Part shown: positions 2,308-64,000 of the stretch, in pieces | Layout: the number at the start of each line of letters is the position of its first letter | Numbering within the stretch: the stretch's first letter is position 1 | Origin: Eledone cirrhosa | Lineage: Eukaryota | Direction: 5' to 3' | Assembly (NCBI GenBank): GCA_964016885.1 | Contig: OZ024741.1 | Coordinates: forward strand, 238,142,001-238,206,000 | DNA length: 64,000 bases | Notes under the pieces: model-generated | Seen by the model: the letters and a program-made list of their open reading frames with translations, nothing else | What the model was told of the DNA's origin: nothing | Database searches by the model: none | Position numbers and translations under genes: made by a program

Positions 2308-2600
2308 CTTCATTGTTTAATCCTTTACTGTAGTTGTGTATTATGGATGTTGTGTATCCTGCTGTAGTGTTCCAGTGTGACTGCTGCTACTGTGTTCAAG
2401 CATTACTGCTGCTGCTGTGGTGTTCCAGTGTAACAGCTGCTTCTGTAGAAGTGTAACTGCTGATGTGACAGTGGTTGTATGTAGTGGGAGGAGAGTTGTT
2501 AGCCAGATGGTGTTGGGGTGGTAGTTACAACATGATGTCTTCCACACACACAATAGTTTGTATGATGAACAAAGAAAAAAAACCTATCAGCCTCACTTTG
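2308..2600 (-). other. Leader (5'UTR) exon L0 of a protocadherin gene lying beyond the left edge
   Basis: Paralogous to L1-L7; ends ACAATGAAG|GTAAGA (donor GT at 2307-2306); 5' end approximate. Confidence 0.7.
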
Positions 2601-2655
2601 AGTATTGAAAGAAATATATAAAATCTCTCTCATCCAATAGGAAATTACTGTAATG
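2585..2655 (-). promoter_or_regulatory. Conserved promoter P0 (CCAAT box 2634-2638 plus TATA-like element)
   Basis: AAATCTCTCTCATCCAATAGGAAATTACTG, near-invariant in all 8 units, upstream of the leader exon. Confidence 0.65.
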
Positions 2656-3350
2656 TTATCAGTGTTACACAAACACATGAAATAATAGAATTCACATGTA
2701 AAAGAAGCTACTTCATAGTTTATATAAAACAGCTCAACATGAGATGTTTAGTGTTAATAATGAAAGAAATTTCATTATTGATTTGCTATTAAATATTTTA
2801 AAATTATAAAACTATTATAATTCTTTACATTTTATCTATTATTACTTATTTTGAATTTACGTAACAAACTTAATATTTTACAAGAATTATGTTAGAATAT
2901 CATAATTCTGAGTAAGTATGTTTAAGATTTATCCCTCCTGATATAAATATTGGATATATAAAAGAAAATTATTAATAAAATACTTAGTCATTAATTATGC
3001 CAATGTAATTATTTCTAATTTATGTTTAAATAATTAGGTCTTTTCCATAACTAACTTTCTAAACATTGTAATATACGAGAACTGAGTGGTATCAATAAAG
3101 TAAGGATATTAACCCTAAAATAGGAAGTAAATAAAAAGAATTAATAAAGAAATATATTTTGACCTATGGTAATATAAGAGTACTTATATTATTTATGTAT
3201 TAAAACATAAAATTAGGGAATATAAAGGTTGACATTGGTAATCCCTTATAAGTGAAGCATAGAGTTGATATATAGACATCAATATAAAGTATTCTATAAC
3301 ATTTGGTGTGTGAGAGAGAGAATCATTTAACAATAGTGATGGGACATCTA

Positions 3351-3430
3351 CTACGTTGGCTGTAGATAGGTATCTTGTACTTGTTGTCCCTTTTGTATTG
3401 TGGCTGGAACTGGATTGTCATTGGTATATT
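3351..3430 (-). CDS. Protocadherin G1 last coding exon ((E)YTNDNPVPATIQKGQQVQDTYLQPT*)
   Basis: TTTTCTAG acceptor, phase 1 matches the upstream exon, ends TAG TAG; 80 nt in all 8 paralogs. Confidence 0.85.
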
Positions 3431-3589
3431 CTAGAAAAAATATAATATAGAAACAGAAATTATATTTCAATATAACAACTCTGTAAAGATATAAACATTG
3501 ATGTTATATTACACTAAATATAACATTAAATATTGTGTTACAGTAATAAAGAGAATTACATTAATATGTTATGTTTAGATAAAAGTTAC

Positions 3590-3737
3590 CTGGTTGTGCA
3601 GATATCTCTTCATATGGTTTAGTTTTGCCAATACTCTTGTAACCTTCTCTGCTTTTTTGTGATGTTAAGGTGTCACTGTTGTAGTTAGACATGCTGAGAC
3701 TGGTGTGACCTTCATGACTATGGATTGAATCACATCT
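3590..3737 (-). CDS. Protocadherin G1 148-nt cytoplasmic exon (RCDSIHSHEG...KPYEEISAQP)
   Basis: CCACAG acceptor, CAG|GTAACT donor, phase 0 in and phase 1 out; conserved in all paralogs. Confidence 0.85.
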
Positions 3738-3963
3738 CTGTGGATTATAAAAGTCAGTAGAGTGAATCACAATATTCAATAGAAAAAGGTTTATATTTAT
3801 TATATAAAATATTTCATGTACAACATAAAAGAGAAATTTTATAATAAATATTATTTATTAAATTCTACAAGTGGAGAGATGCTATACTGAAAAATCAGAG
3901 AACAGCAGATGTAAAATGATAATGGTCAGAACAATAACAGAAATATTTAAAAATAATATTTAC

Positions 3964-6366
3964 CTGTGGAACTGGTGGAAGTCTCCTTTGTGTTGTTGAG
4001 AATTTCCACTCATCTGGTAGCTGCTCCATCTCTGGATAAAACTGACTTTTAGATTTTATTGTCTGAAGATTTCTGTTAAATATCTCTTCTGCATTTCTAG
4101 TTATTGCAACAGGATTGTTAGTCTGATACAATAATTGTCTCATCTCAGTCTGAGACAGAAAGTTTGGATTATCTGCTGTCGTAGGTGAGTTATTGGTGTG
4201 ATTAATACATCTGAAAACACACAGTGTTATTGACACTACAATAGCCACAGATATTATTACAGCTGCTGCTACAATGATAATTACCCAAGTCATATTGAGG
4301 TTGTTACCAGACTGTAGGTGGACAGCATTCAACATTGGAGATGTATCATTACTAACAAACAATGTTAGTATGATAACAGTTGTTGCTGATTGAACTGGAG
4401 TACCACCATCTTTCACTATAAACTGTAGGTCATATGTTCCTGCATCATTTTGGTAAACTGTCCGAGAGAAAGATAAGACACCAGTGTGGGAGTTGACTGT
4501 AAACAGGTTTTTATCATTAGATCTCAGTATTCCATATGTGAGGAAAGCATTGTTTCCAGTGTCTTTGTCAGAGGCTTTCAGAATTGTGATGTCTTTCTTA
4601 CTGTGTGGATGGTAGTGGGCATCTAGATTGTAAGGGTCATTAATAGGAAAGGTAAAATAGGGAGCATTATCATTTTTATCTAGAATCTCAATAACAATAT
4701 TGGCAGTGTCATTCAGAGAAGGTGTTCCATTATCTTTGACTAAAACCTGGAATTTATAGATGTCTTTCACTTCCCGATCTATTGATTGTGATGTAGAAAT
4801 AAATCCATATTTTGTAAGTTGGAAAGGAATGTTATCATTGTTGTTATCATTGATGATAGAATATGTAAGCTGACCCCCATCATCAAGATCAGGGTCTGTA
4901 GCATTGATGAAGCCAATAGGGAAGTCAACTTTCTGGTTTTCATAGGTGAGGAATTGGAATGTATCTTTGGTAAAATGTGGCTGTACATCATTGACATCAG
5001 TTACTTTCACTGAGAAATATTTCTTAGTTTCTAGTTTAGGTGATCCCATGTCATGACATACAATAGATACTTTATAGTGGTCCTTTATTTCTCTATCAAG
5101 ATGGCCTTTAATAATCATCTTATATTCTTTAGAATCTATTTTGGTAAGTTTAAATTTATCATGTTCTAAATCACAGCTAACCTCACCATTAGGTCCAACA
5201 TCAGTGTCAGTGACCATAACATAAGCTATAAAACTACCAACTTTACTTGCTTCTGAAACTCCTGTGGAACTTTCTGTTAAAGGTGATACAAAATCTATAT
5301 TTATCACTGGAGCATTATTCTGGTCATTAATTATGTGAATTTGAACTGTGGTTACAGAACTAAGTTGAGGATTCCCTCCATCTCTGGCTTCAATAAATAA
5401 TTTATAAGATTGCATCTTACTAAAGTGAAAATTATCATGTAAAAATATCTCTCCAGTTTTCTTAATCAATACAAAATATTTCAGTGCATTTCGAGATGTT
5501 TTATGGTTGAAATGATAAGAAATCTTTCCATTGTGTCCAGAATCTAGATCTGTGGCTTTTAATGTAAGAATTGGTAAATGCCTTTGATGTGAATTATTTA
5601 TAGATATGTTGTAGACTTTCTGTGAAAATACAGGTGTGTTATCATTAACATCTGTCACAGCTATGTGTACCTTGAGGGTAGCTGTTTGGGGAGGGTTACC
5701 TCTATCTTTAGCTTCAAGTGTCAACATATATGAGTTTTTAACTTCCCTGTCTAATTTCTCTTCTAAAGTTAATTCGGGTATGAAAATGCCATCATGTCGC
5801 CTTGTGATGGAGAGAGAAAATGGTTCTCTCTTACTTTTTCTAATCATGTATGTAATTTGGGAATTCTTTATTGATATATCTTGATCAATGGCATTTGGAA
5901 GAGAGAATTTATCTCCTTTTCTAGCTACCTCAAAAAATTCAATTTTAACTTCATTCTTGGGAAATTCTGGTGGATGGTCATTGATGTCTTCTATAATTAT
6001 TTTTATCTTCAATATCTTCATAAATGTTTCTGCTTTCCTCACTGCTACTTTAACAATTCTGGAACATTCCTTGTTATATGTACACAGTAACTCAGCATCC
6101 AGTGTCTGTGTAGTGTATAGTTTTCCTGTGTTGGTGACATTAAATAAGTGAGAACCACTTGACACTGTCCTTTGTAGTTGTGTAAATGTAATGAGAGTGT
6201 GTTGATGTGTGAGTGAGTGTGTTAAGTTAGAATCAACAGCAATGTCTCCTATATAGGTGTGAGGACTGTCTTCTTCATTGACATGGTATGTAATGTCTAT
6301 AGACAGTACAAGGTTGTACAAGTACAGTAAATGTAGTAGACAGAGTAGACCAATATATGTTGTCAT
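3964..6366 (-). CDS. Protocadherin G1 large exon: signal peptide, 6 cadherin repeats, TM, proximal tail
   Basis: Cadherin motifs (DINDH, LDRE, DVNDNTPVF, ATDLD), EC1 C-X5-C loop LCTYNKEC, hydrophobic TM WVIIIVAAAVIISVAIVVSITL; donor CAG|GTAAAT at 3963; exon acceptor at 6404, 38 nt upstream of the ATG. Confidence 0.95.
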
Positions 6367-6794
6367 GTCTGGAATTCTTCATCACACTTTAGCTGTAGAA
6401 AATTCTACAAAAGATATCAGACATATATACAGACGAAGGAAAATTAAATAAAACAGCTGATAACTATAATAATAATTATGTAAATTCTACTCCTACTTCT
6501 TTTATACCTTCATGAGAACCAACTAAATTTAGAATATATCATTTGACAAGCTAGAATATAATATAGAGGTAGAGTTATTTCGCTGGAAGAAATATTACAT
6601 TGTCAATGATATGAGATAATGTGCTTATTTTAACCCTTTAGAAAATGTATTAAAAAACCCCAAGTAAGATCCAATATTAATTCAGTTAAATCATCATCTG
6701 AGCTGTAAATTTAATTTTTTCTTTCAATTACTTATATGAAAACTTTTAGTCGATCACAAGAACCATATTTTGAATGTTCTATTTTAAATTTTTG

Positions 6795-6910
6795 TGAAGG
6801 GTTGTGGTTAGAGAATTGGATTCACTTATTGTACGGTTGCAAGCTGTATTCCTGAATCAAGGGAATTGTTATGTCTTTGAGCAAGACACTTTATTTTTAT
6901 GTTGCTCTTT
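6795..6910 (+). mobile_element. Degenerate tRNA-derived SINE fragment
   Basis: TGGTTAGAG A-box remnant and TTGAGCAAGACACTTTATTT core shared with 8822-8983 and 18176-18320. Confidence 0.5.
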
Positions 6911-7584
6911 CTACAAGGAGTTGTGACTGGTATATAGTATCAGTAATGGAAAGAAACATTGTTTTCTAAGTCTGTTTTGAAGAATTCCACGCCACACAAT
7001 AAGCAAATGAGGTCTGGAATCTTGTTCATATATCGACTTTAAATTTACCATTGACAGGAAAGAAACAGTTGTAACTTTTCAAGTTACAATGAGGTATTTT
7101 TAGACGGAAATATTTAGCATTTATTTGTAACAGATTAATTAAATAATACACCAAATGTCTAGAATACAATTCAAATGATACAATATATATCGCTAAGTAT
7201 TGAATATAAAAATCTAATCAAAGTTTTCAGGTAAGTTATGTTTCTTAGAAAGCTAATAAAACCAGCTTCAAATACACATTGTCTAATATAGTCAGAGTAC
7301 CACAAGATTTTGAAGAGGAGTATTGTGCATTCAATCCACAGAACCTGACTGTTAATTGCTTAAGTTAATTAGAACACCTCTGTGTGGTTGCTACTTTGTT
7401 AATAACAAAAGTTAAATATCACTCAGATCAAACCATAGAATCTTGAAAATAAAAGATACACAAGTTGTATATTTGCTATACCTAAGAAAAAGTTGGGATG
7501 GTCATGATTAAAAGGTTTTGTCAATATATCTGCTCAATTAAGCCTGTTTGTTGTTATTTAAAGACATCATTCTTTAGTCACTGG

Positions 7585-7745
7585 GCACTGTATTGGAAGA
7601 ATCGGTAGAGTGTCTGACAGCATACTTTGTGGCATATAGTTACACAACCCTTAACGTTCTGAGTTCCAATTTGTATTTTATGCTTACGGGTTTGATAAAA
7701 TAAAGTACCAGTAATGCACTGGGATTGATTCAATCGTCTTGCCCC
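7585..7745 (+). mobile_element. tRNA-derived SINE (GATAAAATAAAGTACCAG family), diverged
   Basis: Similar to 9986-10163 (ATCGGTAGAG, CTGAGTTC, GATAAAATAAAGTACCAGTAATGCACTGGG). Confidence 0.65.
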
Positions 7746-8130
7746 TTCTCTGTTACTAATGAAGATGAAGTAGTTAATGTTAAGCCTGGGTTTGATTCCC
7801 CCAGTGTGTACTCTAGCCAACAAGAGTACTATCTACAGTTTCTTTATCTGCTAGAAACAGCAGCTACGTTTCTCTTATATCACAGCCTACCATATATTCT
7901 AAGAACATACATATTAAAATAAATGATCATGACTGGAATGTGTTTAACCTGGGCTTAAAAAAGACTGCAGCTCTGAGTAGGAGATCTAGAGAAAAGTGTT
8001 TAGTGTGGGGTTGTGCTGGGGTAAGAAACTGTAATGATGAGAACTTTAGGAGGGGATAATGCTCTAAGTAAAGATGGTAAAGAGTATGGTAATCCAAAGA
8101 AAATAAAACCATTACGGTAATAATAATAAT

Positions 8131-8322
8131 AATTGTTTCTACTTTTGGCACAAGACCAGCAATTACACAGTGTATTACTGGTACTTTATTTTATCGACAC
8201 TGTAAGGATGAAAGGCAAAGTTAACCTCGATGAGATTTGAACTCAGACCATAAAGGGCTGTAACTCTTTGCTGCAAAGCATGGCGTCCGACCTTCTACCG
8301 ATACTGCCAATCCACCGCCCTC
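8131..8322 (-). mobile_element. tRNA-derived SINE, full length
   Basis: Reverse complement of 9986-10163; flanked by (AAT)n runs. Confidence 0.8.
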
Positions 8323-8821
8323 ATAATAATAATAATAATAATGATTTCTTATATGGGCAGAAGGCAAATGAAACCATTACAGTAGTAGTAACATGTCTGC
8401 CTGTATGGTATGTCTGTAAGACTGAGTAGTACTCCAATGTAGGATGCACTTAAGGTTTATATAGTTCCTTTTAAAGTAATATTTGGAATATAATTTTGGT
8501 AAGACTATATGCAGTTGGAGAGAGAGAGATGGCGTTGTTCATATCTTGATAGAATGAGGTACAGACATGTTTTCTTGAAAAGTGTAGAGATTGTATCTTT
8601 GTATTGTAAAACAAGACAAGTGTCTGTTTTCCTCACTGTAGCATGTGTTGGAGATTTCTAAGTTGTATGTGACCTGCTTATCTAACAACTTAAGAAAGTG
8701 TAAATATGCCGTACAGATCTCCAGATACAGTACACCAAGAACAGTTAGAGATAAAATTACATGTGGTTATTGCATATGTATTTTTGCAGTAAATATTACA
8801 CACATTAGCAGTTAATGACAG

Positions 8822-8983
8822 GGACACCCGTCCTATCATCTCATTTCTACAGCTGAGTAAACTGGAGCAATGTGAAATAAAGTGTCTTGCTCAAGGAAAC
8901 AACACATCAGCCGGTCTGAGAATTGAACTCACAACCTTTCGATTGCAAGGCCAATGCTCTAACCACTAAGCCATGTGCCTCCA
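8822..8983 (-). mobile_element. tRNA-derived SINE head and core (second family)
   Basis: Minus strand reads GGAGGCACATGGCTTAGTGGTTAGAGCATTGG...GAGTTCAATTCTC...CCTTGAGCAAGACACTT (A and B boxes). Confidence 0.8.
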
Positions 8984-9119
8984 TATATATACTATAAATA
9001 TATTATGTATACATAATATATATATATAATGTGTGTGTATTGAACAATGAAAATGGAGCAAAAGTCAAAGATAGGTTCTTGGTTGGTTCATTGTTTTACA
9101 GTCGTTTCAGAGGGTTGAT

Positions 9120-9612
9120 TAATCATGGCAGGCATCTACCATACTCTGAACGCCTTGCTTCCCTGGGCATGGATACATTGAAGCTCCGACGCCTGGCAAT
9201 TGACTTGGTAAACACCCACAAAATTGTTAACCATCTTGCCAACAACAACCCTGAGTACCTTTTTGATTTCCATGTGTCTAACACACGTGGGCATGCCCAC
9301 AAAGTCAGAAAACAGCACAGCTCCCATGACTTTCGGAAACATTTTTTCACGCTCAGAGTTGCTGAAGCATGGAACAAGCTACATGCATCAGTTGTTAGCT
9401 GTCGAGACACTGCATCCTTTAAGGCCTCCATGCTTCCCAAGATTCGCCAACACTACACCTAATGTTCCCCCTCCATACACATACACACATCTATATCATG
9501 ACTCATACACTATTCACTTCCCTGACATTTGTGTATTATTCTATGTACTATACATGCACCTTTGACGAGTTGTAGTGCACCTGAGCACTTTACACAATAA
9601 TTTCATTATTAT
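9120..9612 (+). mobile_element. CR1/L2-group LINE 3' end (ORF2 C-terminus, 3'UTR and ATT tail)
   Basis: Translates LPYSERLASLGMDTLKLRRL...TRGHAHKVRKQ...RKHFFTLRVAEAWNKL; near copy at 57231-58010. Confidence 0.9.
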
Positions 9613-9985
9613 ATATAGAATATGAGCCAATAATTCCACTTGGCTCTGGTTTGTACAGAAAGATTAGATGGCCTGGTTGATAAAATACTAGAAAACCAGT
9701 TGAGCAATCATTAGTTCATACTATGTCACAAACACATCATGTCTCTATGATCAAAGCACACTTCATTCCCTATAGACAGGTACACCTAACAATGTAGCTA
9801 GCACAGGAGATGTAACTCACCCCTATAGGTAGAGGTTGTATCGTGGTATTTATGAGTAATTTATTACCTTTCAACGTCTCTTGCCAAGAGAGCTATGTAA
9901 TCTTAAAGAAACTGGAGATAAGGACCAACACAATGGATACTTGCTATTACAAAAAGGTTTAGCTCTCATTAAATTAACTATGTAA

Positions 9986-10163
9986 GGTGGTGGCTTGGCA
10001 GTATCGGTAGAGGGTCGGACGCCATGCTTTCCAGCATAGTTACGTCCCCTTGCGGTCTGAGTTCAAATCCCACCGAGGTTAACTTTGCCTTTCATCCTTA
10101 CGATAAAATAAAGTACCAGTAATGCACTGGGTAATTGATGGCCTTGTGCCAAAAGTAGAAACA
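9986..10163 (+). mobile_element. tRNA-derived SINE with 18-bp target-site duplication
   Basis: A box TGGCAGTATCGG, B box GAGTTCAAATCC; ATTAAATTAACTATGTAA at 9968-9985 and 10164-10181; empty paralogous site near 1078-1095. Confidence 0.9.
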
Positions 10164-11290
10164 ATTAAATTAACTATGTAAATGTGTAGGGAAAACTGAG
10201 CTTAGACAAAATAAAAAAAAAAGACGTTTGATGTTGAAGCTGATCAATATTCATTTAATAGAGCTATATTTGTGATGGGAAGTTATAGGGAATAATGATA
10301 ATTACAGAATAAAACAATTCTTTAGAATGACAGTAAATCACAGTAAACCAATTATATTGTGTTCTAATGAAATTTAATTAAAGGTGTTTGGGCTTACAAA
10401 ACTAAAGATTGACAGCCTAGATAGAGGATATTTTATAGAATTATTCAACTAATATCTTCATGTAATACTTTATATTAAACTCAACTAACATACAGAGGCA
10501 TTAATAACAGTGGCACAATAGTTTACAAATTATGTGGAAATATTTTACAATGTTATATTTTCTAGAGACAAAAAATTTTGAAAATAAAATTAATTGTAAT
10601 AAAAATAATTTTGATGACAATATCATCATCAATTTATATCTAACAATAAACATAGTAAGATACCAAGATTAAATTCTATTTATCAACATTTAATAAAAAA
10701 CCTTCTGAATATCTTATTTACATAGAAATATAAAATGGATATTTAACAAGATATAGGGATAGTAATAATCTTGTAGACTTCATTAAAGCCATAGCAAGAT
10801 AAAGATTTAAATATTCAATTATTACGGCAACACAGATATAAATTATAATGGCATAGATTATTCATAAACAGTTATATAGTCTATCAATAAATATATATCC
10901 AACAGTTGAATAAATATATAGATGTAATATATATATCTTAATAATATCGTGTTTGATTCTAATATTCAAATATGTAGTCTATTTAGTGGTAATTATATGA
11001 CAACTACTGCTGTTGTTTTTAATGGTGGAAAAGATAGCTAGATCCCTCTTGTCTCCAGTTCCTACAGTGCATACAGATATTAAATGTTTATGATGATGAT
11101 GAAGATATGTATCGAGAGAGAGATGGATAGATAGATAGATATACAAGATGGTAGACATTTTAGCTATTATGCTTACTCTGTAATTCAGTATAATACATTT
11201 ATATTTATATTATAAATATATTTGCTGTAATGACTATGAAAAGGAAAGAAAAATACATAGAGAGAGGAAGAGAAAGAGAGGGAGTCTTAC

Positions 11291-11585
11291 CTTCATTGTT
11301 TAATCCTTTACTGTAGTTGTGTATTATGGATGTTGTGTATCCTGCTGTAGTGTTCCAGTGTGACTGCTGCTACTGTGTTCAAGCATTACTGCTGCTGCTG
11401 TGGTGTTCCAGTGTAACAGCTGCTTCTGTAGAAGTGTAACTGCTGATGTGACAGTGGTTGTATGTAGTGGGAGGAGAGTTGTTAGCCAGATGGTGTTGGG
11501 GTGGTAGTTACAACATGATGTCTTCCACACACACAATAGTGTGTATGATGAACAAAGAAAAAAATCTATCAGCCTCACTTTGAGT
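11291..11585 (-). other. Leader exon L1 (of G1)
   Basis: Ends ACAATGAAG|GTAAGA; predicted to splice to the acceptor at 6404; 5' end approximate. Confidence 0.7.
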
Positions 11586-11637
11586 ATTGAAAGAAATATA
11601 TAAAATCTCTCTCATCCAATAGGAAATTACTGTAATG
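11568..11637 (-). promoter_or_regulatory. Promoter P1 (CCAAT 11616-11620)
   Basis: Same conserved CATCCAATAGGAAATTACTG motif and TATATA. Confidence 0.65.
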
Positions 11638-11996
11638 TTATCAGTGTTACACAAACACATGAAATAATAGAATTCACATGTAAAAGAAGCTACTTCATAG
11701 TATATATATAACAGCACAACATTAGAAGTTTACTAAGAATAATGAAATGATTTTCATTATTGATTTGGTATTAATTATTTAAAAATTCTTTACATTTTAT
11801 CTATTATTACTTATTTTGAATTTATGTAACAAACTCTTAATGTTTTACAAGAAATATGTTAGAATATAATAATTTTGAGTAAGTATATTTAAAATTTATC
11901 CCTCCTGATGTAAATATTGGATATATAAAAGAAAGTCATTAATAAAATATTTAGCCATTATTTATGTCAATGTAATTACTTCTAATTTATATTTAA

Positions 11997-51660: not shown

Positions 51661-51817
51661 CTGGAAAATATAAAATATAGAAACAGAAATTATATTTCAA
51701 TATAACAACACTGTAAAGATATAAACATTGAGGTTATATAACACTTACTATAACATTACATATTGTCTTACAGTAATAAAGGGAATTACATTTCTATGTT
51801 GTTTAGATAAAAGTTAC

Positions 51818-51965
51818 CTGATTGTGCAGATATCTCTTCATATGGTTTACCCTTGCCAATACTTTTGTAACCTTCTCTGCTTTTTTGTGATGTTAAGGTG
51901 TCACTGTTGTAGTTAGACATGCTGAGACTGGTGCGACCTTCATGACTATGGATTGAATCACATCT
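51818..51965 (-). CDS. Protocadherin G7 148-nt exon
   Basis: GACAG acceptor, CAG|GTAACT donor; ...KGKPYEEISAQS. Confidence 0.82.
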
Positions 51966-52700
51966 CTGTCAATTATAAAAGATATCAGAGTGAAACATCA
52001 TGTTAGCTTGAATAAATCTTTATGTTTATTATGTAAAATAAAAGAATTTAAAGAATGGAAGAATCATACCAACAGAGATATTATAAGAAAATATTCTCTC
52101 TGTTAATGTAAATAATTTTGAGATCTAATTGTGTAAAAGATGAAATTTACTCTTAAGAAAATCCAAAAATCTAAATACAGCAAAATGTAAATAAAAATAT
52201 AAATAAAAGTATAAATTTAAAACAACATTTTAAGAATTTCACAAAAATAATTGTGTTTCTTTTTATCTAATGATACCATGGATCCTCACTTGAAATGCTT
52301 CCTACAAAAAGACAACATACTGGAAAAGTTTTTTTTGAAAGACCAGTAATAACCCATGCATGAAAGTCAACTAACTTAACACCAAGATTGAGGTTTAAAG
52401 AAAAAGCAAAGGACAATACAGCTGAGTACCAGTGACATTTAAGTTGAAGTCAAAATGCAGAGGGATGAAAGTATCACTTCCAACACTGTAACAATTCCGC
52501 TAATCCATAGCACTGGACTAATATTTTATACATTGTCACCGAAAGGATGATAGAAAGGTTGACCTTAGAAGGACTGAATACAAAGTGCAGAGAGCTGGAA
52601 CAAATAGAGTAAGGCATTCAATAAGATATGCTATGACTTAATCAATGGGTTATCAAACATATATTATTCAATACTAGAATTTGTGTAAACAAATATTTAC

Positions 52701-55097
52701 CTGTGGAACTGGTGGAAGTCTCCTTTGTGTTGTTGAGAATTTCCACTCATCTGGTAGCTGTTCCATCTCTGGATAAAACTGACTTTTAGATTTTATTGTC
52801 TGGAGATTTCTGTTAAATATCTCTTCTGCATTTCTAGTTATTGCAACAGGATTGTTGGTATGATACAGTAATTGTCTCATCTCAGTCTGAGACAGAAAGT
52901 TTGGATTATCTGCTGTTGTAGGTGAGTTATTGGTGTGATTAATACATCTGAAAACACACAGTGTTATTGACACTACAATAGCCACAGATATTATTACAGC
53001 TGCTGCTACAATGATAATTACCCAAGTCATATTGAGATTGTTACCAGTCTGTAAGTGGACAGCATTCAACATTGGAGATGTATCATTACTAACAAACAGT
53101 GTTAGCATGATAACAGTTGTTGCTGATTGAACTGGAGTACCACCATCTTTCACTATAAACTGTAGGTCATATGTTCCTGCATCATTTTGGTAAACTGTCC
53201 GAGAGAAAGATAAGACACCAGTGTGGGAGTTGACTGTAAACAGGTTTTTATCATTAGATCTCAGTATTCCATATGTGAGGAAAGCATTGTTTCCAGTGTC
53301 TTTGTCAGAAGCTTTCAGAATTGTGATGTCTTTCTTACTGTGAGGATGGTAGTGGACATCTAGATTGTAAGGGTCATTAATAGGAAAGGTAAAATAAGGA
53401 GCATTATCATTTTTATCTAGAATCTCAATAACAATATTGGCAGTGTCATTCAGAGAAGGTGTTCCATTATCTTTGACTAAAACCTGGAATTTATAGATGT
53501 CTTTTACTTCCCGATCTATTGATTGGGATGTAGAAATAAATCCATATTTTGTAAGTTGGAAAGGAATGTTATCATTGATGTTATCATTGATGATAGAATA
53601 TGTAAGTAGACCTCCATCTCCAAGATCAGGGTCAGTAGCATTGATGAAGCCAATAGGGAAGTCAACTTTCTGGTTTTCATAGGTGAGGAATTGGAATGTA
53701 TCTTTGGTAAAATGTGGCTGTACATCATTGACATCAGTTACTTTGACAGAGAAATATTTCTTAGTTTCTAGTTGAGGTGATCCCATGTCATGACATACAA
53801 TAGATACTTTATAGTGGTCCTTTATTTCTCTATCAAGTTGTCCCTTAATAATTAAATTGTATTCTTTAGACTCTATTTTAGCAAGTTTAAATTTATCATG
53901 TTTTAAATCACAGCTAACCTCACCATTAGGTCCAACATCAGTGTCAGTGACCATAACATAAGCTATAAAACTACCAATTTTACTTGCTTCTGAAACTGCT
54001 GTGGAACTTTCTGTTAAAGGTGATACAAAATCTATATTTATCACTGGAGCATTATTCTGGTTATTGATTGTGTGAATTCGAACTGTGGTAATAGACTTTT
54101 TTGGTGGAATGCCTCCATCACGTGCTTCAATAAATAATTTATAAGATTGCATCTTACTAGAGTGAAAATTTTCATGTAAAAATATCTCTCCAGTTTTCTT
54201 ATCTAATACAAAATATTTCTGGGCATTTCGAGATGTTTTATGGTTGAAATGATAAGAAATCATTCCATTGTTTCCAGAATCTAGGTCTGTGGCTTTTACT
54301 TTAAGGATTGGTAAATGCCTTTGATGTGAATTATTTATAGATATGTTGTACACTTTCTGTGAAAGTACAGGTGTGTTATCATTTACATCTGTCACAGCTA
54401 TGTGTACTTTGAGGGTAGCTGTTTGGGGAGGGTTCCCTCCATCTCTAGCTTCAAGTGTCAACATATATGAGTCTTTTACTTCCCTGTCTAATTTCTCTTC
54501 TAGAATCAGTTCAGGTATAAAGACACCATCATCTTGCTTTGTGATAGAGAGAGAAAATGGTTCTCTCTTACTTTCCTTAATGTATGTAATATGAGAATTC
54601 TGTATTGAAACATCTTGATCAATGGCATTTGGAAGAGAGATTTTACTTCCTTTCAAGTCTCTTTCTGAAAATTCAATTTCAACTTCATCCTCTGGAAATT
54701 CTGGTGAATGATCATTGATGTCTTCTATTAATATTTTTATCTTAAGAATTTTCATAAAGTTTTCTCCCTTCCTCACTGCTACTTTAACAATTCTGGAACA
54801 TTCCTTGTTATATGTACACAGTGATTCAGCATCCAGTGTCTGTGTAGTGTATAGTTTTCCTGTGTTGGTGACATTAAATAAGTGAGAACCACTTGACACT
54901 GTCCTTTGTAGTTGTGTAAATGTAATGAGAGTGTGTTGTTGATGTGTAAGAGAGTGTGTTAAGTTAGAATCAACAGCAATGTCTCCTATATAGGTGTGAG
55001 GACTGTCTTCTTCATTGACATGATATGTAATGTCTATAGACAGTACAAGGGTCATCAGTAAATGTAGTAGACAGAGTAGACCAATATATGTTGTCAT
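52701..55097 (-). CDS. Protocadherin G7 large exon (799 codons)
   Basis: Intact ORF; donor CAG|GTAAAT; acceptor at 55135. Confidence 0.95.
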
Positions 55098-57230
55098 GTC
55101 TGGAATTCTTCATCATACTTTAGCAGTAGAAATTTCTACAAAAGACAATAGAAATATTCAAAATCTAAATCTCATGCAATATTAATACCATTCCATATCC
55201 ACCATAAGATGTATGAATTATAAAAGTTTCACAGTGTGTACGTAACTCTGTTAAAATATATAAAATAATTAATTCTTGTGACAAAGTAAAATGTAGTTTA
55301 ACCTTTGAACAATAAAATATCAATATAGTGTCATTTAATAATTTAGTAACACATCTATGGTAAGGAAATAAATAACCACTAGTCTTACCATCAGAAGGTT
55401 AAAAGTTGGTTTTCATATCAGCATTGAAATTTCTAAAGTGTCTATTATTAGAGGGGTAAAGCAGCAACCAGTCCAGCTTAAGGGCCAAACTGCAGAAATT
55501 GTTGACATAGCTGAGCACTGCCCTTGCTAAAGATGGCAACTAAAAAACTGATGTGAAAAAGAAACTTCACAAAGCTGAAGCTGTCGTTCAACACCTAATG
55601 CCTGTGTGATATAACTCTTTAATCAGCCAAGGCACAAAACTTTGCCTGTATAAGTGAATGATTGTGACAATGGCACCGTATGCATGTGAGACATTAAAAA
55701 AATGTAGTCACCACCATATGTTGGTAGAAGATGCTTGGTCATGACCTACTTACGTCCACAAAGAGACCAGTGTGGGTCTTTTGTGAATAGAAGCCAGATG
55801 GGATTGTATATAGAAGGCAAGGGAGACTCACAAAGACTTGATTGAAGTCTATAGAGGAAGACCTGGCAGACATGGGCCATGATTTGAAGCATGACAAGGC
55901 TCGCAATGGGGGCAAAATGAACTAAAGAAGAAAAAATAATTATTTGCATGTATGTCTCTCTTCACTTCATGATGACACAACTTGGGCAGCTGGTGCTATT
56001 GATTTATGTACTGCAGCTCAAAGATCCGATGTGTGATAACCAGGAACATACAAAAAAGTCATGGTTGGTGTCAGGAAGGGCATCTAGGCCAAAATGTCAT
56101 ATCCTGTTCATGTCAGTATCAAAAAGCAGATGTAAAAATGACGATGAAGATGATATTAAAATAGAATATAGAAGTAGTGTGGTTAGACATCAGAGTAATG
56201 GGCCTCATAAATGAGATATCATAAGACTGTGATATACTGGATGGCAGACACACAGCCTATCGAAACATGCACAAATGGATGTTAAAACATTGAAAATAAT
56301 AATTTGTAACAAACTTGAGGGAAGGGGTTAGTCAGTTACATCAACCTCAATACTTCACAGGTACTTTACTTTATCTACCCTAGAAGGATGAAAGGCAAAA
56401 TTGATTTTGGTGTGATCAGAACATAGATGATAATGAACATAATGATAATGAATTAATAATATGTGAATGGTGCTATTGATGTGGCTATATGATACATCAT
56501 CATTGTTTAATGTCTATTTTCCATATGAATTACCATTAAGCTGCATCAGTAAACATCAACCAGAATAGACAACTATCATAAAAGATCCTCACAGCAATAA
56601 TTAAACTGTAATGGAACTCTCTCTATATTTGTCTTTAATATTTCACTTTGTTTCACTTTTCATGGGGAAGGTAATGAAAGTCACAGATCCACACTGAGGA
56701 TAAGTTTAACCCTGACATTGTATGAAAGCAATCACTGATAACACAGATTGAGAAGGAAGACCCAAAGAGTGGTAACCAGTGGGGGAAAAGATACACTATT
56801 GCAGTATCTAAATCAAATGTCACCAACAAAAGAATATAAACTGCATTTCTAACTATATTTTATGTCACACATTGCCTTTCTTCATCTAAAATGAAAATGT
56901 TCAAGATTTAAGCAATCTTTTTCTTTTAGATTAACAATAAGAAATAAACTTTTTTGTGATATTGATGAAACATATATATGAAGTATATCAGCAATTACAA
57001 TGCGGAAGAATCATTTTAGACATAAAACACACACACACATATATATATTTCTAAAACAGGTTATAGTACATTATTACCATTATTACAGTATTGAAACAAT
57101 TCATTCAGTCTGAAATTATATATTGTATATTTCCTGACATCATATTAAAGAATCTTCCATTTTTAAATGACTAGCAAGGTAAACATGAACATGATGATGA
57201 GACATACACACACACATACACACATATACA

Positions 57231-58010
57231 TACTCCCTCCACAACACTTATATCAAAAAGTCTTCTTGTGAACGTGACCTGGGCATTATTGTCAGCAGCA
57301 ATTTGCGTTGGACGAAGCACATCTCTAAAATTGTCGAGAAAGCTGAGGGTGTCTTGGCATCACTCAGCAAGACCTTTGTCAGCTGCTCTCCAGCTATCTA
57401 TTTAAAGCTGTATATAGCTATGGTGCGGCCACACTTAGAATTTGCATCACCAGTCTGGAACCCCCATCTTGCTCAGAAGATTGACCTCCTGGAAACTGTT
57501 CAGAGACGTGCAACCAAGCGAGAACCCTCCATCAGGCATCTACCATACTCTGAACGCCTTGCTTCCCTGGGCATGGATACATTGAAGCTCCGACGTCTGG
57601 CAACTGACTTGGTAAATACCCACAAAATTATTAACCATCTTGCCAACAACAACCCTGAGCACTTTTTTGAATTCCTTATGTCTAACACACGTGGGCATGC
57701 CTACAAAGTCAGAAAACAGCACAGCACACAGAAACATTTTTTCACACTCAGAGTTGCTGAAGCATGGAACAAACTACCTGCATCAGTTATTAGCTGCCGA
57801 GATACTGCATCCTTTAAAACCTCCATGCTTCCTGAAATTCGCCAACACTACACCTAATATCCCCCTCCATACACATGCACATATGTATATCATGACTCAT
57901 ATACTGTTCACTTCCCTGACATTTGTACATTATTCTATGTACTATACATGCACCTTTGATGAGTTGTAGTGCAACTGAGCACTGTACACAATAATTTAAT
58001 TATTATTACT
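57231..58010 (+). mobile_element. CR1/L2-group LINE 3' end, relatively young
   Basis: Open frame YSLHNTYIKKSSCERDLGIIVSSNLRWTKH...MVRPHLEFASPVWNPH...LETVQRRATK...WNKLP, then 3'UTR and (ATT)n tail. Confidence 0.9.
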
Positions 58011-58011
58011 A

Positions 58012-58965
58012 TTATTATGTATATATATATCATCATCAGTTTGAGTTAAAATACACCTAGTAAATGAGTTAAATGTACTCATAATACTATTACTATTATA
58101 TTATATGTGTGTTTATATATATATATATATATATACACACACATACATATAAATAGAAACTGCGGTGCTGAGACCAAGTCGAGATTTTACATATCTCTCT
58201 CTCTCTCTATATATATATATAACAGGGAAAGTGGATGTTAAACGATGATGATGATGATATATATATATAATGTGCATACATAACTAAATATTTCGTCCAT
58301 CAACCATTGTATCAGATCTAAAATTCTAAAACTAAAATATGCAGTTCTTTACTGTTGTTATTTAGCCGCACGTCAGTCCTGAATGAGCAAACCTATAACT
58401 ATAAGCATTTCAGCCATAACAATCCCGTGATTTTGCAGGCATTGTACATGGAAGACTACATTATCTAATATGTCATTGGCCTCAGTAAGATGATAGAGAT
58501 ACAGTTACTACTTTTAACAGGCCAGGCAACCATGTAACGACTGCCTTGTGGGCTGCTTTTACCAACAACTATAGTTCTTGTTGGTGGAGGTGATAAATAT
58601 ATCTTCCAGTACTCCATTGCTTCAGTCCCTGCACACACACACACACACATATATATAGTAATAATAATTATAATAAGTATGGTACTAAGGAAAAACAGGA
58701 ATAACTAGACAAGATGAATTGGTCAGAAGGAGAAAATTACTTGACCTACACAAATGAAAAAATTTAATTTGATTTATCTTCGTGTGTGTATGTATATATG
58801 TATATACGTGTATATACATGTATATATATATATATCAGAGCTCTTACATAGCTGACGTTTCAGTCTCTATATATACAACATGGCAGAAATTTACAACTGT
58901 TATCTTAGTTTTTTGTCGTTGGAAGTGATCCTGTGTATATATATATATATATATATACATACACG
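58012..58965. repeat. Cluster of (TA)n, (CA)n, (TC)n and (GAT)n microsatellites
   Basis: Directly visible at ~58015, 58113-58150, 58193-58220, 58632-58656, 58782-58834 and 58935-58960. Confidence 0.8.
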
Positions 58966-59097
58966 GACAAGCACATATAACATGGCAGTCATTTTTAGAT
59001 GCTATCCTTAACCTGTGTTTCATGATAAATATATATAACATAAATGTTATAGTGAAGAAAGAAAGAGAAAGGGAGAAACAGAAACAGAGGGACTTAC

Positions 59098-59428
59098 CTG
59101 CATTGCTTAATCCTTCACTGTATTTGTGTGTGATGAATGTAGTGTGTCCTGCCAGGGTGATCCATTGATACTGCTGCTATTGCAATGGAGCTAAAGTGTA
59201 ACTGCTGCTACTGTAGTGGTGTTGAAGTGCAGCTGCTACTGTGGTGTTCCTGTGTAACTGCTGCTGCTGCAGTAGTGTAACTGCCAGTGTGACAGTAGTT
59301 TTATGTAGAGGGAGGGGGATGTTAGCCAGATGGTGTTGGGGTGATAGTTACAACACTATGTCCTCCACACACACACACAATAGTGTGTATCAGGAACAAA
59401 GAAAAAAGCCATCAGCCTCACTTTCAAT
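59098..59428 (-). other. Leader exon L7 (of G7)
   Basis: Ends GCAATGCAG|GTAAGT; longest leader (extra internal repeats). Confidence 0.7.
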
Positions 59429-59480
59429 ATTGAAAGAAATATATAAAATCTCTCTCATCCAATAGGAAATTACTGCAATG
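59410..59480 (-). promoter_or_regulatory. Promoter P7 (CCAAT 59459-59463)
   Basis: Conserved motif. Confidence 0.65.
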
Positions 59481-60398: not shown

Positions 60399-60478
60399 CT
60401 ATGTTGGCTGTAGATAGGTATCTTGTACTTGTTGTCCCTTTTGTATTGTGGCTGGAACTGTATTGTCATTGGTATATT
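60399..60478 (-). CDS. Protocadherin G8 last coding exon
   Basis: TTTTCCAG acceptor, 80 nt to TAG TAG. Confidence 0.85.
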
Positions 60479-60595
60479 CTGGAAAATAGAAAATATAGAA
60501 ATAGAAATTATATTTCAATATAACAACTCTGTAAAGATATAAACATTGATGTTATATTACACTAAACATAACATTAAATATTGTCTTACAGTAAT

Positions 60596-60766
60596 TGTCT
60601 CTACTTTAGGCACAAGGCCAGCAATTACCCAGTGCATTACTGGTACTTTATTTTATCGACCCCGTAAGGATGAAAGGCAAGTCACCTCGGCGGGATTCGA
60701 ACTCAGATCGTAAAGGGACGTAACTATGCTGGAAAGCATGGCGTCCGACCCTCTACTGATCCTGCC
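60596..60766 (-). mobile_element. tRNA-derived SINE in the last intron of G8
   Basis: Interrupts TTACAGTAAT^AAAGAGAATT of paralogs; B box GAGTTCGAATCCC on the minus strand. Confidence 0.85.
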
Positions 60767-60811
60767 AATAAAGAGAATTATATTTCTATGTTATGTTTAT
60801 ATAAAAGTTAC

Positions 60812-60959
60812 CTGGTTGTGCAGATATCTCTTCATATGGTTTAGTCTTGCCAATACTTTTGTAACCTTCTCTGCTTTTTTGTGATGTTAAGGTGTCACTG
60901 TTGTAGTTAGACATGCTGAGACTGGTGCGACCTTCATGACTATGGATTGAATCACACCT
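60812..60959 (-). CDS. Protocadherin G8 148-nt exon
   Basis: CCACAG acceptor, CAG|GTAACT donor. Confidence 0.85.
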
Positions 60960-61625
60960 CTGTGGAATATAAAAGAAAGCAGAGTGAATCATGATGTCAA
61001 CTTGAATAAATACTTATATTTATTGTCTAAAATATTTCTGGTGTAACATAAGAAAGAATTCCATTCATCTCGGTTTATCATAAATGAAAGCAGAGCATGA
61101 TCTTAACTTGAATAAACACATATATTCTAGATCATTCCTTGACAGATGTGAGGGAATCATCTTATAAAGTGTAATACCTCTGTAAATTAATAATTTTAAC
61201 AAATCTATTATCATACATATATGACCACTAATTAGTATATGTAATAAACTGAATTGATTTAAGTACATTACCAATAGATTTTGTCACTAAAGTGACAAAG
61301 GAAAACCAATGTCAGGGGTATTTGAAATTAGATAAAGTGACAGCAGTTTTAAGTGGAAGGAAGATGAGGAAAAGGAAGGCTGAGGAGAACTTCGGCAGAA
61401 ATGGTGAAAGCTTGTTCCAAGACTTACATAAACAGTTAGATGGAAGGACTCTGCACTAGAGAGGACCTGAGTGACATGAAAAAACAACCAGGAAAATGAT
61501 GATCAAGATCTATTTAGAAAATGAGCTGATTCATATCATATGTAAAATAAATATTAATATTCTGCTGCAGCAAAAAGACAATTGAATTTAAGTGTTACCT
61601 TTAGATAGAATATTGAAATACTCAC

Positions 61626-64000
61626 CTGAGGAACTGGTGGAAGTCTCCTTTGTGTTGTTGAGAATTTCCACTCATCTGGTAGCTGTTCCATCTCTGGATA
61701 GAACTGACTTTTAGATTTTATCGTCTGGAGATTTCTAGCAAATATATCTTCTGCATTTCTGGTTATTGCAACAGGATTGTTGGTCTGATACAGTAATTGT
61801 CTCATCTCAGTTTGAGACAGAAAGTTTGGATTATCTGCTGTTGTAGGTGAGTTATTGGTGTGATTAATACATCTGAAAACACACAGTGTTATTGACACTA
61901 CAATAGCCACAGATATTATTACAGCTGCTGCTACAATGATAATTACCCAAGTCATATTGAGATTGTTACCAGTCTGTAAGTGGACAGCATTCAACATTGG
62001 AGATGTATCATTACTAACAAACAGTGTTAGTATGATAACAGTTGTTGCTGATTGAACTGGAGTACCACCATCTTTCACTATAAACTGTAGGTCATATGTT
62101 CCTGCATCATTTTGGTAAACTGTCCGAGAGAAAGATAAGACACCAGTGTGGGAGTTGACTGTAAACAGGTTTTTATCATTAGATCTCAGTATTCCATATG
62201 TGAGGAAAGCATTGTTTCCAGTGTCTTTGTCAGAGGCTTTCAGAATTGTGATGTCTTTCTTACTGTGTGGATGGTAGTGGACATCTAGATTGTAAGGGTC
62301 ATTAATAGGAAAGGTAAAATAGGGAGCATTATCATTTTTATCTAGAATCTCAATAACAATATTGGCAGTGTCATTCAGAGAAGGTGTTCCATTATCTTTG
62401 ACTAAAACCTGGAAATTATAGATGTCTTTTACTTCCCGATCTATTGATTGTGATGTAGAAATGAATCCATATTTTGTAAGTTGGAAAGGAATGTTATCAT
62501 TGTTGTTATCATTGATGATAGAATATGTGAGTTGACCTCCATCTTCAAGATCAGGGTCTGTAGCATTGATGAAGCCAATAGGAAAGTCAACTTTCTGGTT
62601 TTCATAGGTGAGGAATTGGAATGTATCTTTGGTAAAATGTGGCTGTACATCATTGACATCAGTTACTTTCACTGAGAAATATTTCTTAGTTTCTAGTTGA
62701 GGTGATCCCATGTCATGACATGCAATAGATACTTTATAGTGGTCCTTTATTTCTCTATCAAGATGTCCCTTAATAATCATTTTATATTCTTTAAAATCTA
62801 TTTTGACAAGTTTAAATTTATCATGTTTTAAGTCACAGCTAACCTCACCATTAGGTCCAACATCAGTGTCAGTGACCATAACATAAGCTATAAAACTATC
62901 TAGTTCACTGTCTTCTGAAACTGTTGTGGAACTTTCTGTTAAAGGTGATACAAAATCTATATTTATCAATGGAGCATTATTCTGGTTATTGATTATGTAA
63001 ATATGAACTGTAGTTACAGAACTTAACGAGGGATTTCCTTGATCTTGTACTTCAATATATAAATTGTAAGTCTGTTTCCTGCCTAAAGTAAAACTATCTT
63101 TTAAATATATTTCCCCATTTGTTTCTTTCAATAAAAAATGTTTTAGTGAATGAATGGAAGTTTTATGGTTGAAATGATAAGAAATCTTTCCGTTGTTTCC
63201 AGAATCTAAATCCGTGGCTTTTAAAGTAAGAATTGGTAAATGTCTTTGATGTGAATTTTTTATAGATATGTTGTAGACTTTCTGTGAAAATACAGGTGTG
63301 TTATCATTAACATCTGTCACATCTATGAGTACCTTGAGTGTAGCTGTTTGGGGAGGGTCCCCTCCATCTTTAGCTTCAAGTGTCAACATATATGATTTCT
63401 TTAGTTCCCTGTCTAATTTATCTTTTAGACTCAGTCCTGGAATGAGGATGCCATCATGTCGTTTTGTCATATACAAAGAAAATGGGTTTCTTTCCTGTGT
63501 CACTATTCTATATGTAATTTGTGAATTTATGGTGGTAATATCTCTATCTATGGCAAATGGAATTATCTTTCTCGTTCCTTTAAAACTGTCCTCAGCAAAT
63601 TGAACAGTGATTTTGTCAACAGAAAACTCTGGGGAATGGTCATTGATGTCTTCAATGATTATCTTGAGTTTTAACATCTTCATAAATGTTTTTCCTTTCC
63701 TCACTGCTACTTTAACAATTCTGGAACATTCCTTGTTATATGTACACAGTGACTCAGCATCTAGTGTCTGTGTAGTATATAGTTTTCCTGTGTTGGTGAC
63801 ATTGAATAAGTTAGAACCACTTGACACCGTCCTTTGTAGTTGTGTAAATGTAATGAGAGTGTGTTGTTGATGTGTAAGAGAGTGTGTTAAGTTAGAATCA
63901 ACAGCAATGTCTCCTATATAGGTGTGAGGACTGTCATTTTCATTGACATGGTATGTAATGTCAGCAGATACTATAACAGACTGTTGTAAATATAGTAAAC
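61626..64000 (-). CDS. Protocadherin G8 large exon, 5'-truncated by the window edge
   Basis: Frame stays open to the edge (..LLYLQQSVIVSADITYHVNENDSPH..); donor CAG|GTGAGT; the ORF-track start at 63827 is internal. Confidence 0.93.

Follow-up and report, generated by a model that had tools for sequence, protein, structure and literature searches.

Divergence confined to EC2-EC3 and probable concerted evolution of private tails in a tandem protocadherin array of Eledone cirrhosa

Gene Content of the Array

The window, a 64,000-nucleotide stretch of Eledone cirrhosa DNA, was found to lie in an octopod protocadherin sub-array of 28 tandem units in 256 kb. Twenty-six of the 28 units were intact, with predicted proteins of 872-876 aa, and when matches to the tail exon were scored genome-wide, 28 of 28 fell within one 256-kb stretch. 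In the window, the minus strand carried eight large protocadherin exons spaced 6.4-9.1 kb apart, in agreement with the first-pass annotation of eight same-strand units 6-9 kb apart. An array of complete genes had been described as well, which held for six units: u17 is a pseudogene, u11 begins outside the window and the leader at 2308 is that of a gene to the left, so six genes in the window were complete and intact. The features were as follows.

u11, 60399..64000, minus strand: intact gene cut by the window end; large exon 64063-61626 with ATG 64028 outside the window; tail exon 60959-60812; last-exon CDS 60478-60399; leader donor 70316, outside the window
u12, 51581..59450, minus strand: intact, 874 aa, 5' end approximate; leader donor 59098; large exon 55135-52701, ATG 55097; tail exons 51965-51818 and 51660-51581 (stop)
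u13, 44764..50840, minus strand: intact, 874 aa, 5' end approximate; leader donor 50489; large exon 48175-45741, ATG 48137; tail exons 45150-45003 and 44843-44764; three of four runs contained the 45003/44843 join
u14, 38356..44086, minus strand: intact, 875 aa; leader spanning about 44086 to donor 43738 (its join and length read off paralogous contigs aligned at u14); large exon 41970-39533, ATG 41932; tail exons 38741-38594 and 38435-38356
u15 (reference unit), 29273..37365, minus strand: intact, 875 aa; leader donor 37021; large exon 33056-30619, ATG 33018; tail exons 30152-30005 and 29352-29273; joins 30619/30152 and 30005/29352 in contigs
EC2-EC3 of u15, 31963..32622, minus strand: residues 133-352, the part that varies in all units
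spliced upstream ORF of u15, 33015..37026, minus strand: ATG and one codon at the leader end (37026-37021), then 13 large-exon codons
u16, 20517..28250, minus strand: intact, 875 aa, 5' end approximate; leader donor 27903; large exon 24427-21990, ATG 24389; tail exons 21249-21102 and 20596-20517
u17, 12479..19700, minus strand: pseudogene; leader donor 19351, upstream ATG lost; large exon 14953-13057 with a 2-nt deletion (frameshift near 14816) and a 530-nt deletion at 13787; first tail exon 144 nt (12852-12709); last exon 12558-12479
u18, 3351..11650, minus strand: intact, 876 aa, 5' end approximate; leader donor 11291; large exon 6404-3964, ATG 6366; tail exons 3737-3590 and 3430-3351
u19 leader exon, 2308..2670, minus strand: coding exons of u19 left of the window

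Each large exon in the window was followed by its own 148-nt tail exon (144 nt in u17) and a last exon, with GT-AG intron ends. The protein layout (signal peptide, six cadherin repeats, one TM) was that of a 6-EC protocadherin, as had been proposed for the large exon: the first repeat was assigned by Pfam to PF08266 (Cadherin_2) and the following five stretches to PF00028 (Cadherin), then the TM. The top matches in a PDB sequence comparison were mostly protocadherins.

The units were full genes of a single subfamily, each with several exons, arrayed in tandem on one strand. The available text of PMC9068888, PMC6339937 (Styfhals 2019) and PMC9795677 describes other coleoid sub-arrays likewise as head-to-tail, multi-exonic and closely related full genes. 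Full-gene duplication without shared final exons, with gene conversion proposed, is set out for coleoid PCDH in the accessible part of Albertin 2022 (PMC9068888); this arrangement is thus already published, and the cluster itself is not new, as the first-pass annotation had stated. Added here to those accounts, as far as their available text goes, are a per-domain map, the homogenised private tail block, the sharing of EC5-TM across sub-arrays with different tails, and the upstream ORF.

Splicing and the Use of Private Tails

Splice evidence was taken from transcript-type contigs of public runs, which carry no tissue labels. All three introns were found spliced, which upheld the four-exon models. 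Tail intron 3 was joined in 4 of 4 runs, the leader to the large exon in 3 of 4 and, among the matches listed, intron 2 in at least 2 of 4; the contigs collapse near-identical tails, so these counts would include any cross-unit joins. The conserved block before each leader donor lay inside transcript contigs (reaching 44067 and 44086) and is at least partly 5' UTR. Hence, of the promoter and leader exon previously attributed to each unit, the leader was confirmed and the promoter remained presumptive.

Splicing of the Pcdh-alpha/gamma kind, onto one shared set of constant exons, was not found; the 28 units had 28 private tail sets instead, and no shared distal constant exon with the array tail type occurred beyond u28 in the flanking DNA examined, which bore out the claim that shared constant exons are lacking. 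The next unit at the array end, u29, had a divergent tail of its own, unlike the array tail type. Vertebrate Pcdh-beta genes are similarly tandem and independent, without shared constant exons, but in the available text of PMC7811963 they are single-exon genes with a short tail, whereas the octopod genes have four exons, three spliced introns and a tail of about 158 residues.

The tails could alternatively form a pool of interchangeable constant exons, with read-through often splicing a large exon to the tail of the downstream neighbour. Splice phases of 0 and 1 were alike in all intact units, only 0.9-2.0 kb separated a stop codon from the next leader donor, and the gap was bridged by two low-depth contigs of one other organism that linked a 3' UTR to the next leader. 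Read-through or fusion transcripts among octopus PCDH genes are also mentioned in the accessible part of PMC9712504, and with the bridging contigs they indicate that transcription of each gene alone is not strict. However, each intact gene carried, 0.26-3.0 kb downstream, a tail of its own flanked by sound splice sites, the 3' UTRs were private, and in the one informative contig of the source organism a u22-u28-type leader was joined to the u27 acceptor sequence (compared by eye). A tail swap by hypothetical cross-unit splicing would alter only a few residues, and PMC9068888, in its available text, states that cephalopods use no shared final exons. Pooled tails were regarded as improbable. The equal phases, noted earlier for every unit, were present in the intact ones; they result from whole-gene duplication and do not speak for a special design.

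The segment 44308-44649, between a 3' UTR and the next leader, was covered in 0 of 4 runs, and such absence of contig cover proves nothing. This spacer may simply not align for contigs of other organisms.

Divergence along the Protein

Protein identity among units was 93% in EC1, 70% in EC2, 77% in EC3, 91% in EC4, 98% in EC5, 99% in EC6, 97% in the TM and 96-97% in the tails. The dS values (26 genes) were 0.18, 0.50, 0.37, 0.13, 0.04 and 0.04 for EC1 to EC6, 0.03 for the TM, 0.12 for the in-exon cytoplasmic part and 0.04-0.05 for the tail exons, the value for EC2 being about ten times that of EC5-to-tail. Diversity was thus confined to EC2-EC3, with EC1, EC4, EC5, EC6 and the TM near-constant like the tails. 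A variable ectodomain on a constant, near-identical tail had been reported at first; the tail was as described, but only two repeats of the ectodomain vary.

An EC2-EC3 identity of at least 90% was reached by only 7 of 325 unit pairs, among them u24/u26 (99.5%) and u25/u27 (98%). The dN/dS ratio in EC2-EC3 was 0.37-0.41 and no 15-codon window exceeded 1 in pairwise comparison, so diversifying selection was without support. Variable sites were not enriched in two loops taken, with approximate limits, as the counterparts of the vertebrate specificity loops (85 of 220 shifts scored equally high).

This domain-level map matched mouse Pcdh-alpha, for which the available part of PMC4978886 (Table 1) gives identities of 96, 69, 59, 85, 98 and 84 for EC1 to EC6; in vertebrate clustered Pcdh the specificity lies in EC2/EC3 (PMC5001838, in part). 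Further likenesses to Pcdh-alpha and -gamma, within the accessible text of PMC7811963, PMC4978886 and PMC5001838, were a large exon encoding signal peptide, six EC, TM and proximal tail, diversity in EC2-EC3 with conversion in EC5-EC6, one tail type per cluster, and divergent genes at the cluster ends. The octopod array differs in having arisen independently and in that each gene possesses tail exons of its own and a leader exon that is non-coding. For octopod protocadherins, neither such a per-domain conversion map nor a binding assay or upstream ORF was found in the literature searched. Albertin 2015 and its supplements, and Wang and Ragsdale 2017, may hold domain-level detail.

Homogenisation of the Tail and Membrane-Proximal Block

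Between-unit distance per site was 0.02 in the tail exons and 0.06-0.15 in the intron between them, compared with 0.31-0.51 in intron 2, 0.38-0.44 in the intron 1 flanks and 0.42-0.46 in the distal 3' UTR; fourfold sites in the tail exons differed by less than 0.01. Diverged introns and UTRs beside near-identical tail exons indicate that the units are old and that the tail block, intron included, was converted as DNA. Near-site incompatibility was 0.30 against 0.41 in shuffled data (0 of 1000 shuffles as low), and recombination has occurred within EC1-EC4. The sequences support homogenisation of the private tails beyond purifying selection, and concerted evolution of tail and EC5-TM by gene conversion is likely. 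Part of the conversion signal could also stem from unequal crossing-over that left chimeric copies.

A route through reverse transcripts was also considered; it was rejected because the intron separating the two tail exons is homogenised too and 0 of 28 units had lost a tail intron.

An artefact of assembly, in which collapsed or cross-polished repeats make the tails uniform, was given next to no probability. Near-identical repeats are prone to collapse, and only about half of the sampled words were present in three non-spliced-type runs, but 0 of 325 tail pairs were identical, flanks and insertions were specific to each unit, and independent Octopus and Argonauta annotations repeated the pattern with tail versions peculiar to each.

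Recent whole-gene duplication with purifying selection on the tail and fast EC2-EC3 evolution, without conversion, was considered very improbable. Some copies are young, as the u24/u26 and u25/u27 pairs show, and the available text of Jiang 2022 (PMC9795677) dates one octopod PCDH burst to 8-14 Ma from whole-gene distances. The introns, however, were 0.3-0.5 apart against 0.02 in the tail exons, the fourfold sites were nearly invariant, and EC2-EC3 lineages were shared with Argonauta and Octopus. Further, 20 of 151 tail-exon bases differed from a contig of another organism, so this exon is not ultraconserved DNA. The recent-duplication account is already largely refuted.

Homogenisation was strongest in EC5-EC6-TM and extended into a neighbouring sub-array, which has EC5-TM in common, yet a tail only 27-45% identical to the array tail. 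Tails within that sub-array were less uniform (76-89%), and escape from homogenisation fell on EC2-EC3 in both sub-arrays. The orphan tail u1, for which no leader was found and whose large exon is reduced to a 160-nt relic of 85-90% identity, was 5 of 228 bases off the majority, within the 0-7 range of intact genes.

Comparison across Octopods

The annotations of O. sinensis, O. vulgaris and Argonauta hians contained proteins with the array tail type, at 86% identity in O. sinensis and 84% in Argonauta hians. Trees were built from the 26 units and 44 named octopod proteins, the foreign ones being 90%-cluster representatives from automatic annotation. The EC5-TM tree grouped by lineage across three octopod lineages with 2 changes, the minimum, although its bootstrap had not settled and two of the three groups reached only 92/84 and 93/80. 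The tree of the cytoplasmic part, with 21 named Octopus and Argonauta proteins of the array tail type, also grouped by lineage (supports 96/99/97). In the tail, 13-16 of 86 columns were near-fixed lineage-specific differences, which, with the dS contrast between tail exons and EC2, supported the earlier proposal that private tails are kept homogenised.

The EC2-EC3 tree needed 10 changes and contained one three-lineage clade at 99/99; monophyly of the Eledone cirrhosa EC2-EC3 sequences had a p-AU of 0.029 (quick tree, tested post hoc after the EC2-EC3 tree). A foreign protein was closer than some own paralog for 26 of 26 units in EC2-EC3 and for 0 of 26 in EC5-TM. EC2-EC3 thus retains older lineages shared with Argonauta and Octopus, and its diversity pattern was present in all three lineages. 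Whole-gene dating of a recent burst may consequently be biased by conversion; such a bias is suggested for the published date, although Jiang may have dated another cluster.

Upstream ORF

The TGA of the upstream ORF overlapped the main ATG in 25 of 26 intact units, and its frame was kept in contigs of two other organisms. Single changes were synonymous in 12 of 57 cases against 23% expected, so no selection on the peptide was indicated and a conserved peptide was rejected. The leader ATG was also rejected as the true start: u15 has no nearby in-frame acceptor, and the contigs use an out-of-frame one.

Interpretation

It was considered probable that whole four-exon genes are homogenised within each lineage from EC4 to the tail, and more weakly in EC1, likely by recurrent conversion at the DNA level, with EC2-EC3 escaping and keeping old types. 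We proposed that purifying selection would keep the membrane-proximal and tail exons similar enough for conversion, which would then spread new variants across the array copies. By analogy with vertebrate protocadherins, each gene would be transcribed alone with its own tail, trans homophilic binding would use an antiparallel EC1-EC4 contact whose specificity resides in EC2-EC3, the common EC5-EC6 would mediate side-by-side pairing, and one tail type per sub-array would signal.

In vertebrate Pcdh-alpha and -gamma, a CTCF site (CSE) lies at each promoter, trans binding is strictly homophilic, cis dimers are promiscuous, single cells choose promoters stochastically, and variable residues cluster at the trans interface and are positively selected. 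With a vertebrate consensus, from which an octopus-specific motif may differ, 2 CTCF-like matches were found against 2.6 expected, both in introns; no WIRS-like motif was present in the tail.

A special constant-signalling design, advanced in the first-pass annotation, was not sustained: EC5-EC6-TM is homogenised most and is common to a sub-array with another tail, and the gene-less orphan tail is as homogenised as the rest. Homogenisation may possibly be a neutral by-product of conversion, with no recognition code and with the array adding mainly dosage or cell-type-specific expression; this was judged plausible, if somewhat unlikely. The orphan tail, the less uniform neighbouring tails and the lack of dN/dS above 1 in EC2-EC3 favour it, as does O. 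vulgaris, where part of the PCDH are ubiquitous and others are enriched in particular cell types, with about 21 per neuron (PMC9712504, available text). It leaves unexplained why EC2-EC3 escape recurs in both sub-arrays, three lineages and vertebrates, and so few pairs (7/325) reach 90% identity there. Its conversion mechanism is that of the preferred explanation, the difference concerning function only.

The EC2-EC3 pattern hints, by analogy, at an independently evolved neuronal identity code. Only tentatively can the reading be widened to octopods having arrived on their own, through copies of whole genes, at the complete self-recognition logic of vertebrates. In that doubtful joint reading, EC2-EC3 would be the specificity code, one converted EC5-EC6-TM module of more than 40 genes in two sub-arrays would let isoforms pair side by side in mixed combinations, a constant tail specific to its sub-array and maintained by conversion would replace shared exons, and the upstream ORF at the start codon would tune the dose of each isoform.

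Ages taken from whole-gene distances will come out far too young for these arrays. Short coding reads are not assignable to single genes of the array; the private 3' UTRs let 3'-end single-cell reads separate the copies. The domain map marks EC2-EC3 as the part to test, with 26 natural isoforms that differ almost only there.

Array layout and gene models

Six-frame translation of the window showed eight protocadherin frames on the minus strand, seven of them long and one broken up, and its self-comparison gave a repeat unit of 6.4-9.1 kb. All 28 scored genome matches to the first tail exon lay within 256 kb around the window; gene models were made for all 28 units (u1-u28, of which the window holds u11-u18), flanking DNA included. 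The unit consisted of a leader exon, a large exon of ~2.44 kb, a 148-nt tail exon and a last exon, and in 26 of the 28 it encoded a protein of 872-876 amino acids with phases 0 and 1. Pfam returned Cadherin_2 and five Cadherin domains, and the closest named proteins were octopod. The first-pass annotation had described eight four-exon units 6-9 kb apart; the spacing stood, but u17 (window 12479-19351) was found to be a pseudogene and u11 begins outside the window, leaving six complete and intact genes inside it.

The large exon of u1 persisted only as a 160-nt relic, its tail being an orphan that u0, the gene upstream, could also use as an alternative tail:

~238,297,400-238,299,200: u1 orphan tail cassette, open frame, homogenised like functional tails

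Of the 228 bases of this tail, 5 departed from the majority sequence (0-7 in intact genes), and there was a proline inside an otherwise conserved C-terminal motif. Copies lacking a gene seem to undergo conversion as well.

The genes at the array ends, u0 (~238,327,800) and u29 (~238,029,600), each had their own divergent tail and matched single proteins (O. sinensis 85%, Argonauta 80%), which is reminiscent of vertebrate C-type genes. In u29 the large exon was homogenised and the tail was not. The array ends at tens of kb of simple tandem repeats (237.96-238.01 Mb), just downstream of the last gene.

Divergence between copies

The comparison of the 26 genes was performed by region.

Protein identity and dS between copies (26 genes)
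EC1: 93%; 0.18
EC2: 70%; 0.50
EC3: 77%; 0.37
EC4: 91%; 0.13
EC5: 98%; 0.04
EC6: 99%; 0.04
Stalk and TM: 97%; 0.03
Proximal tail: 97%; 0.12
Tail exons: 96-97%; 0.04-0.05

Introns 1 and 2, like the distal 3' UTR, differed in DNA by 0.3-0.5, as against 0.02 in the tail exons and 0.06-0.15 in the intron that separates these. No correlation was seen between pairwise distances for EC5-TM or the tail and the EC1-EC3 distances (rho -0.11 to 0.05), perhaps in part owing to low signal. EC1-EC4 was tested for recombination at 190 informative sites of 19 core units, and none of 1000 shuffles gave a value as low. No dN/dS above 1 was recorded in any window tested, and no enrichment of variable sites was found in two loops named in vertebrates. 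A 3.4-kb block, 93.6% identical between window 26016-29425 and 35101-38508, spanned a gene boundary, running from the last exon through the spacer and the following leader into intron 1; it may be either a long conversion tract or a recent unequal crossover.

Cross-species trees

Trees were built with 44 of at least 120 homologues (25 Argonauta, 19 Octopus), three short rows being removed from each 67-row tree. The EC5-TM tree grouped sequences by lineage with 2 changes, the fewest possible (supports 92/84, 100/100 and 93/80, the bootstrap not having settled). After two mis-modelled rows and those with another tail had been set aside, the cytoplasmic part of 47 same-tail proteins was likewise grouped by lineage (supports 96, 99 and 97), and the tail held 13-16 near-fixed lineage differences in 86 columns. 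The EC2-EC3 tree required 10 changes and contained a clade, at 99/99, of five units of the window species with three Argonauta and two Octopus proteins. Forcing the window species together in EC2-EC3 cost 48.7 log units (p-AU 0.029, on a quick tree and with the test run after the EC2-EC3 tree had been seen). It was concluded that concerted evolution is limited to part of the gene; such region-specific concerted evolution, in an array of known kind, is well supported as real. The homogenisation of private tails, claimed in the first-pass annotation, was confirmed.

Neighbouring sub-array

EC5-EC6 DNA matched at 98-100% in all 40 scored places, 12 of them beyond u0, where a second gene set is located:

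~238.35-238.59 Mb: second sub-array, ~22 genes, different private tail

It had 22 large-exon starts, 17 of which were parsed, and its own tail exons were 76% and 89% uniform. Between the two sub-arrays EC5, EC6 and TM were 96% identical, EC4 71%, EC2-EC3 47-50% and the tail exons only 27% and 45%. EC5-TM is thus the module with the widest sharing, and each sub-array is marked by its tail type, which also holds in Argonauta and Octopus. The constant-signalling design put forward earlier is unproven. Despite divergence of the remaining tail, a short Tyr-Leu-x-Pro C-terminal ending, possibly a phosphotyrosine docking site, was kept in both sub-arrays and both flanking genes.

Proposed mechanism

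We proposed that whole genes arose by tandem duplication before the Argonauta-Octopus split. Selection would have held the membrane-proximal and tail exons alike, and by this likeness short conversion tracts could have carried variants through the array; EC2-EC3 would have diverged and mostly escaped conversion. In the accessible text of PMC9068888, coleoid PCDH diversity is ascribed to full gene duplication with no splicing to shared final exons, multi-exonic same-direction sub-arrays of 34 and 27 genes are described in O. bimaculoides, and gene conversion is proposed; the available part of PMC6339937 makes the same statement about copy similarity. Vertebrate clustered protocadherins, according to the accessible portions of PMC5001838, PMC4978886, PMC7811963 and PMC10084454, bind in trans via EC1-EC4, where EC2-EC3 set the specificity, and use EC5-EC6 for pairing in cis; by analogy, the same domains may perform these functions here. 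The per-domain profile closely resembled that of mouse Pcdh-alpha in Table 1 of PMC4978886. No per-domain map for octopod protocadherins was found in the literature searched, a scope that excluded Albertin 2015 and Wang and Ragsdale 2017.

Transcript evidence

The search yielded 24 public runs as contigs, most presumed RNA, and five different runs were compared with the window. The tail intron join 30005/29352 occurred exactly as predicted in all four of four runs, the join 30619/30152 in at least two of four, and the leader was spliced to the large exon in three of four. In a single contig of X24, a run from the window's own organism, comparison by eye showed the joined letters to be those of the u27 acceptor, and the leader to be of the longer type found in u22-u28; splicing within one unit would fit this contig. 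Contigs covered ~350 nt of sequence ahead of the leader donor, therefore the conserved block there is transcribed; the separate promoter earlier assigned to each unit is putative.

Two contigs (depth ~6) of X9, a run from another organism, joined a 3' UTR and the leader that follows it through unknown letters, and read-through fusions of PCDH genes are mentioned in the accessible text of PMC9712504; cross-unit splicing is therefore possible, and the in-frame cross-splicing suggested in the first-pass annotation is unproven. The public models P0038, P0009 and P0014 showed an upstream tail exon joined into the EC2 of the next gene, a doubled tail exon or a start in another frame, which may reflect either annotation trouble in orthologous arrays or read-through.

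Upstream ORF

The leader ended with an ATG and one codon, opening a spliced frame of 14-15 codons, located in the reference unit u15 as follows:

Window 37026-37021 joined to 33056-33015, minus strand: upstream ORF of u15, with an equivalent site in other units

In every intact unit but u6 (25 of 26) its TGA overlapped the main ATG, and the upstream ATG was absent from the pseudogene u17. The peptide was not conserved (22 distinct sequences), and stops interrupted none of the 22 in this frame as against 20 and 21 in the other two (crude neutral estimate 0.005). The frame was retained in contigs of two other organisms, once with an extra codon (by eye, over part of the stretch). In the neighbouring sub-array 19 genes could be assessed: seven lacked the upstream ATG, four had a start-stop and eight were open, so it was lost or reduced in 11; six of the eight open frames ended on the main ATG, two of these eight genes having been paired with a neighbour's leader since their own was not found. 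The upstream ORF probably dampens translation and can be dispensed with.

Repeats in leaders and introns

A 25-31-nt degenerate repeat, differing in length between units, was present within each leader exon:

Window 2359-2466: leader-exon repeat
Window 11342-11449: leader-exon repeat
Window 27962-28034: leader-exon repeat
Window 37072-37152: leader-exon repeat
Window 43789-43869: leader-exon repeat
Window 50548-50620: leader-exon repeat
Window 59170-59278: leader-exon repeat

First introns contained two related plus-strand fragments, 91% identical (window 8998-9612 and 57201-58006), which resemble C-terminal parts of a LINE reverse transcriptase. High-copy interspersed intron elements of very high contig depth, presumably SINE-like, were located at window 29452-29918, 18518-18980, 39164-39372 and 34900-35100.
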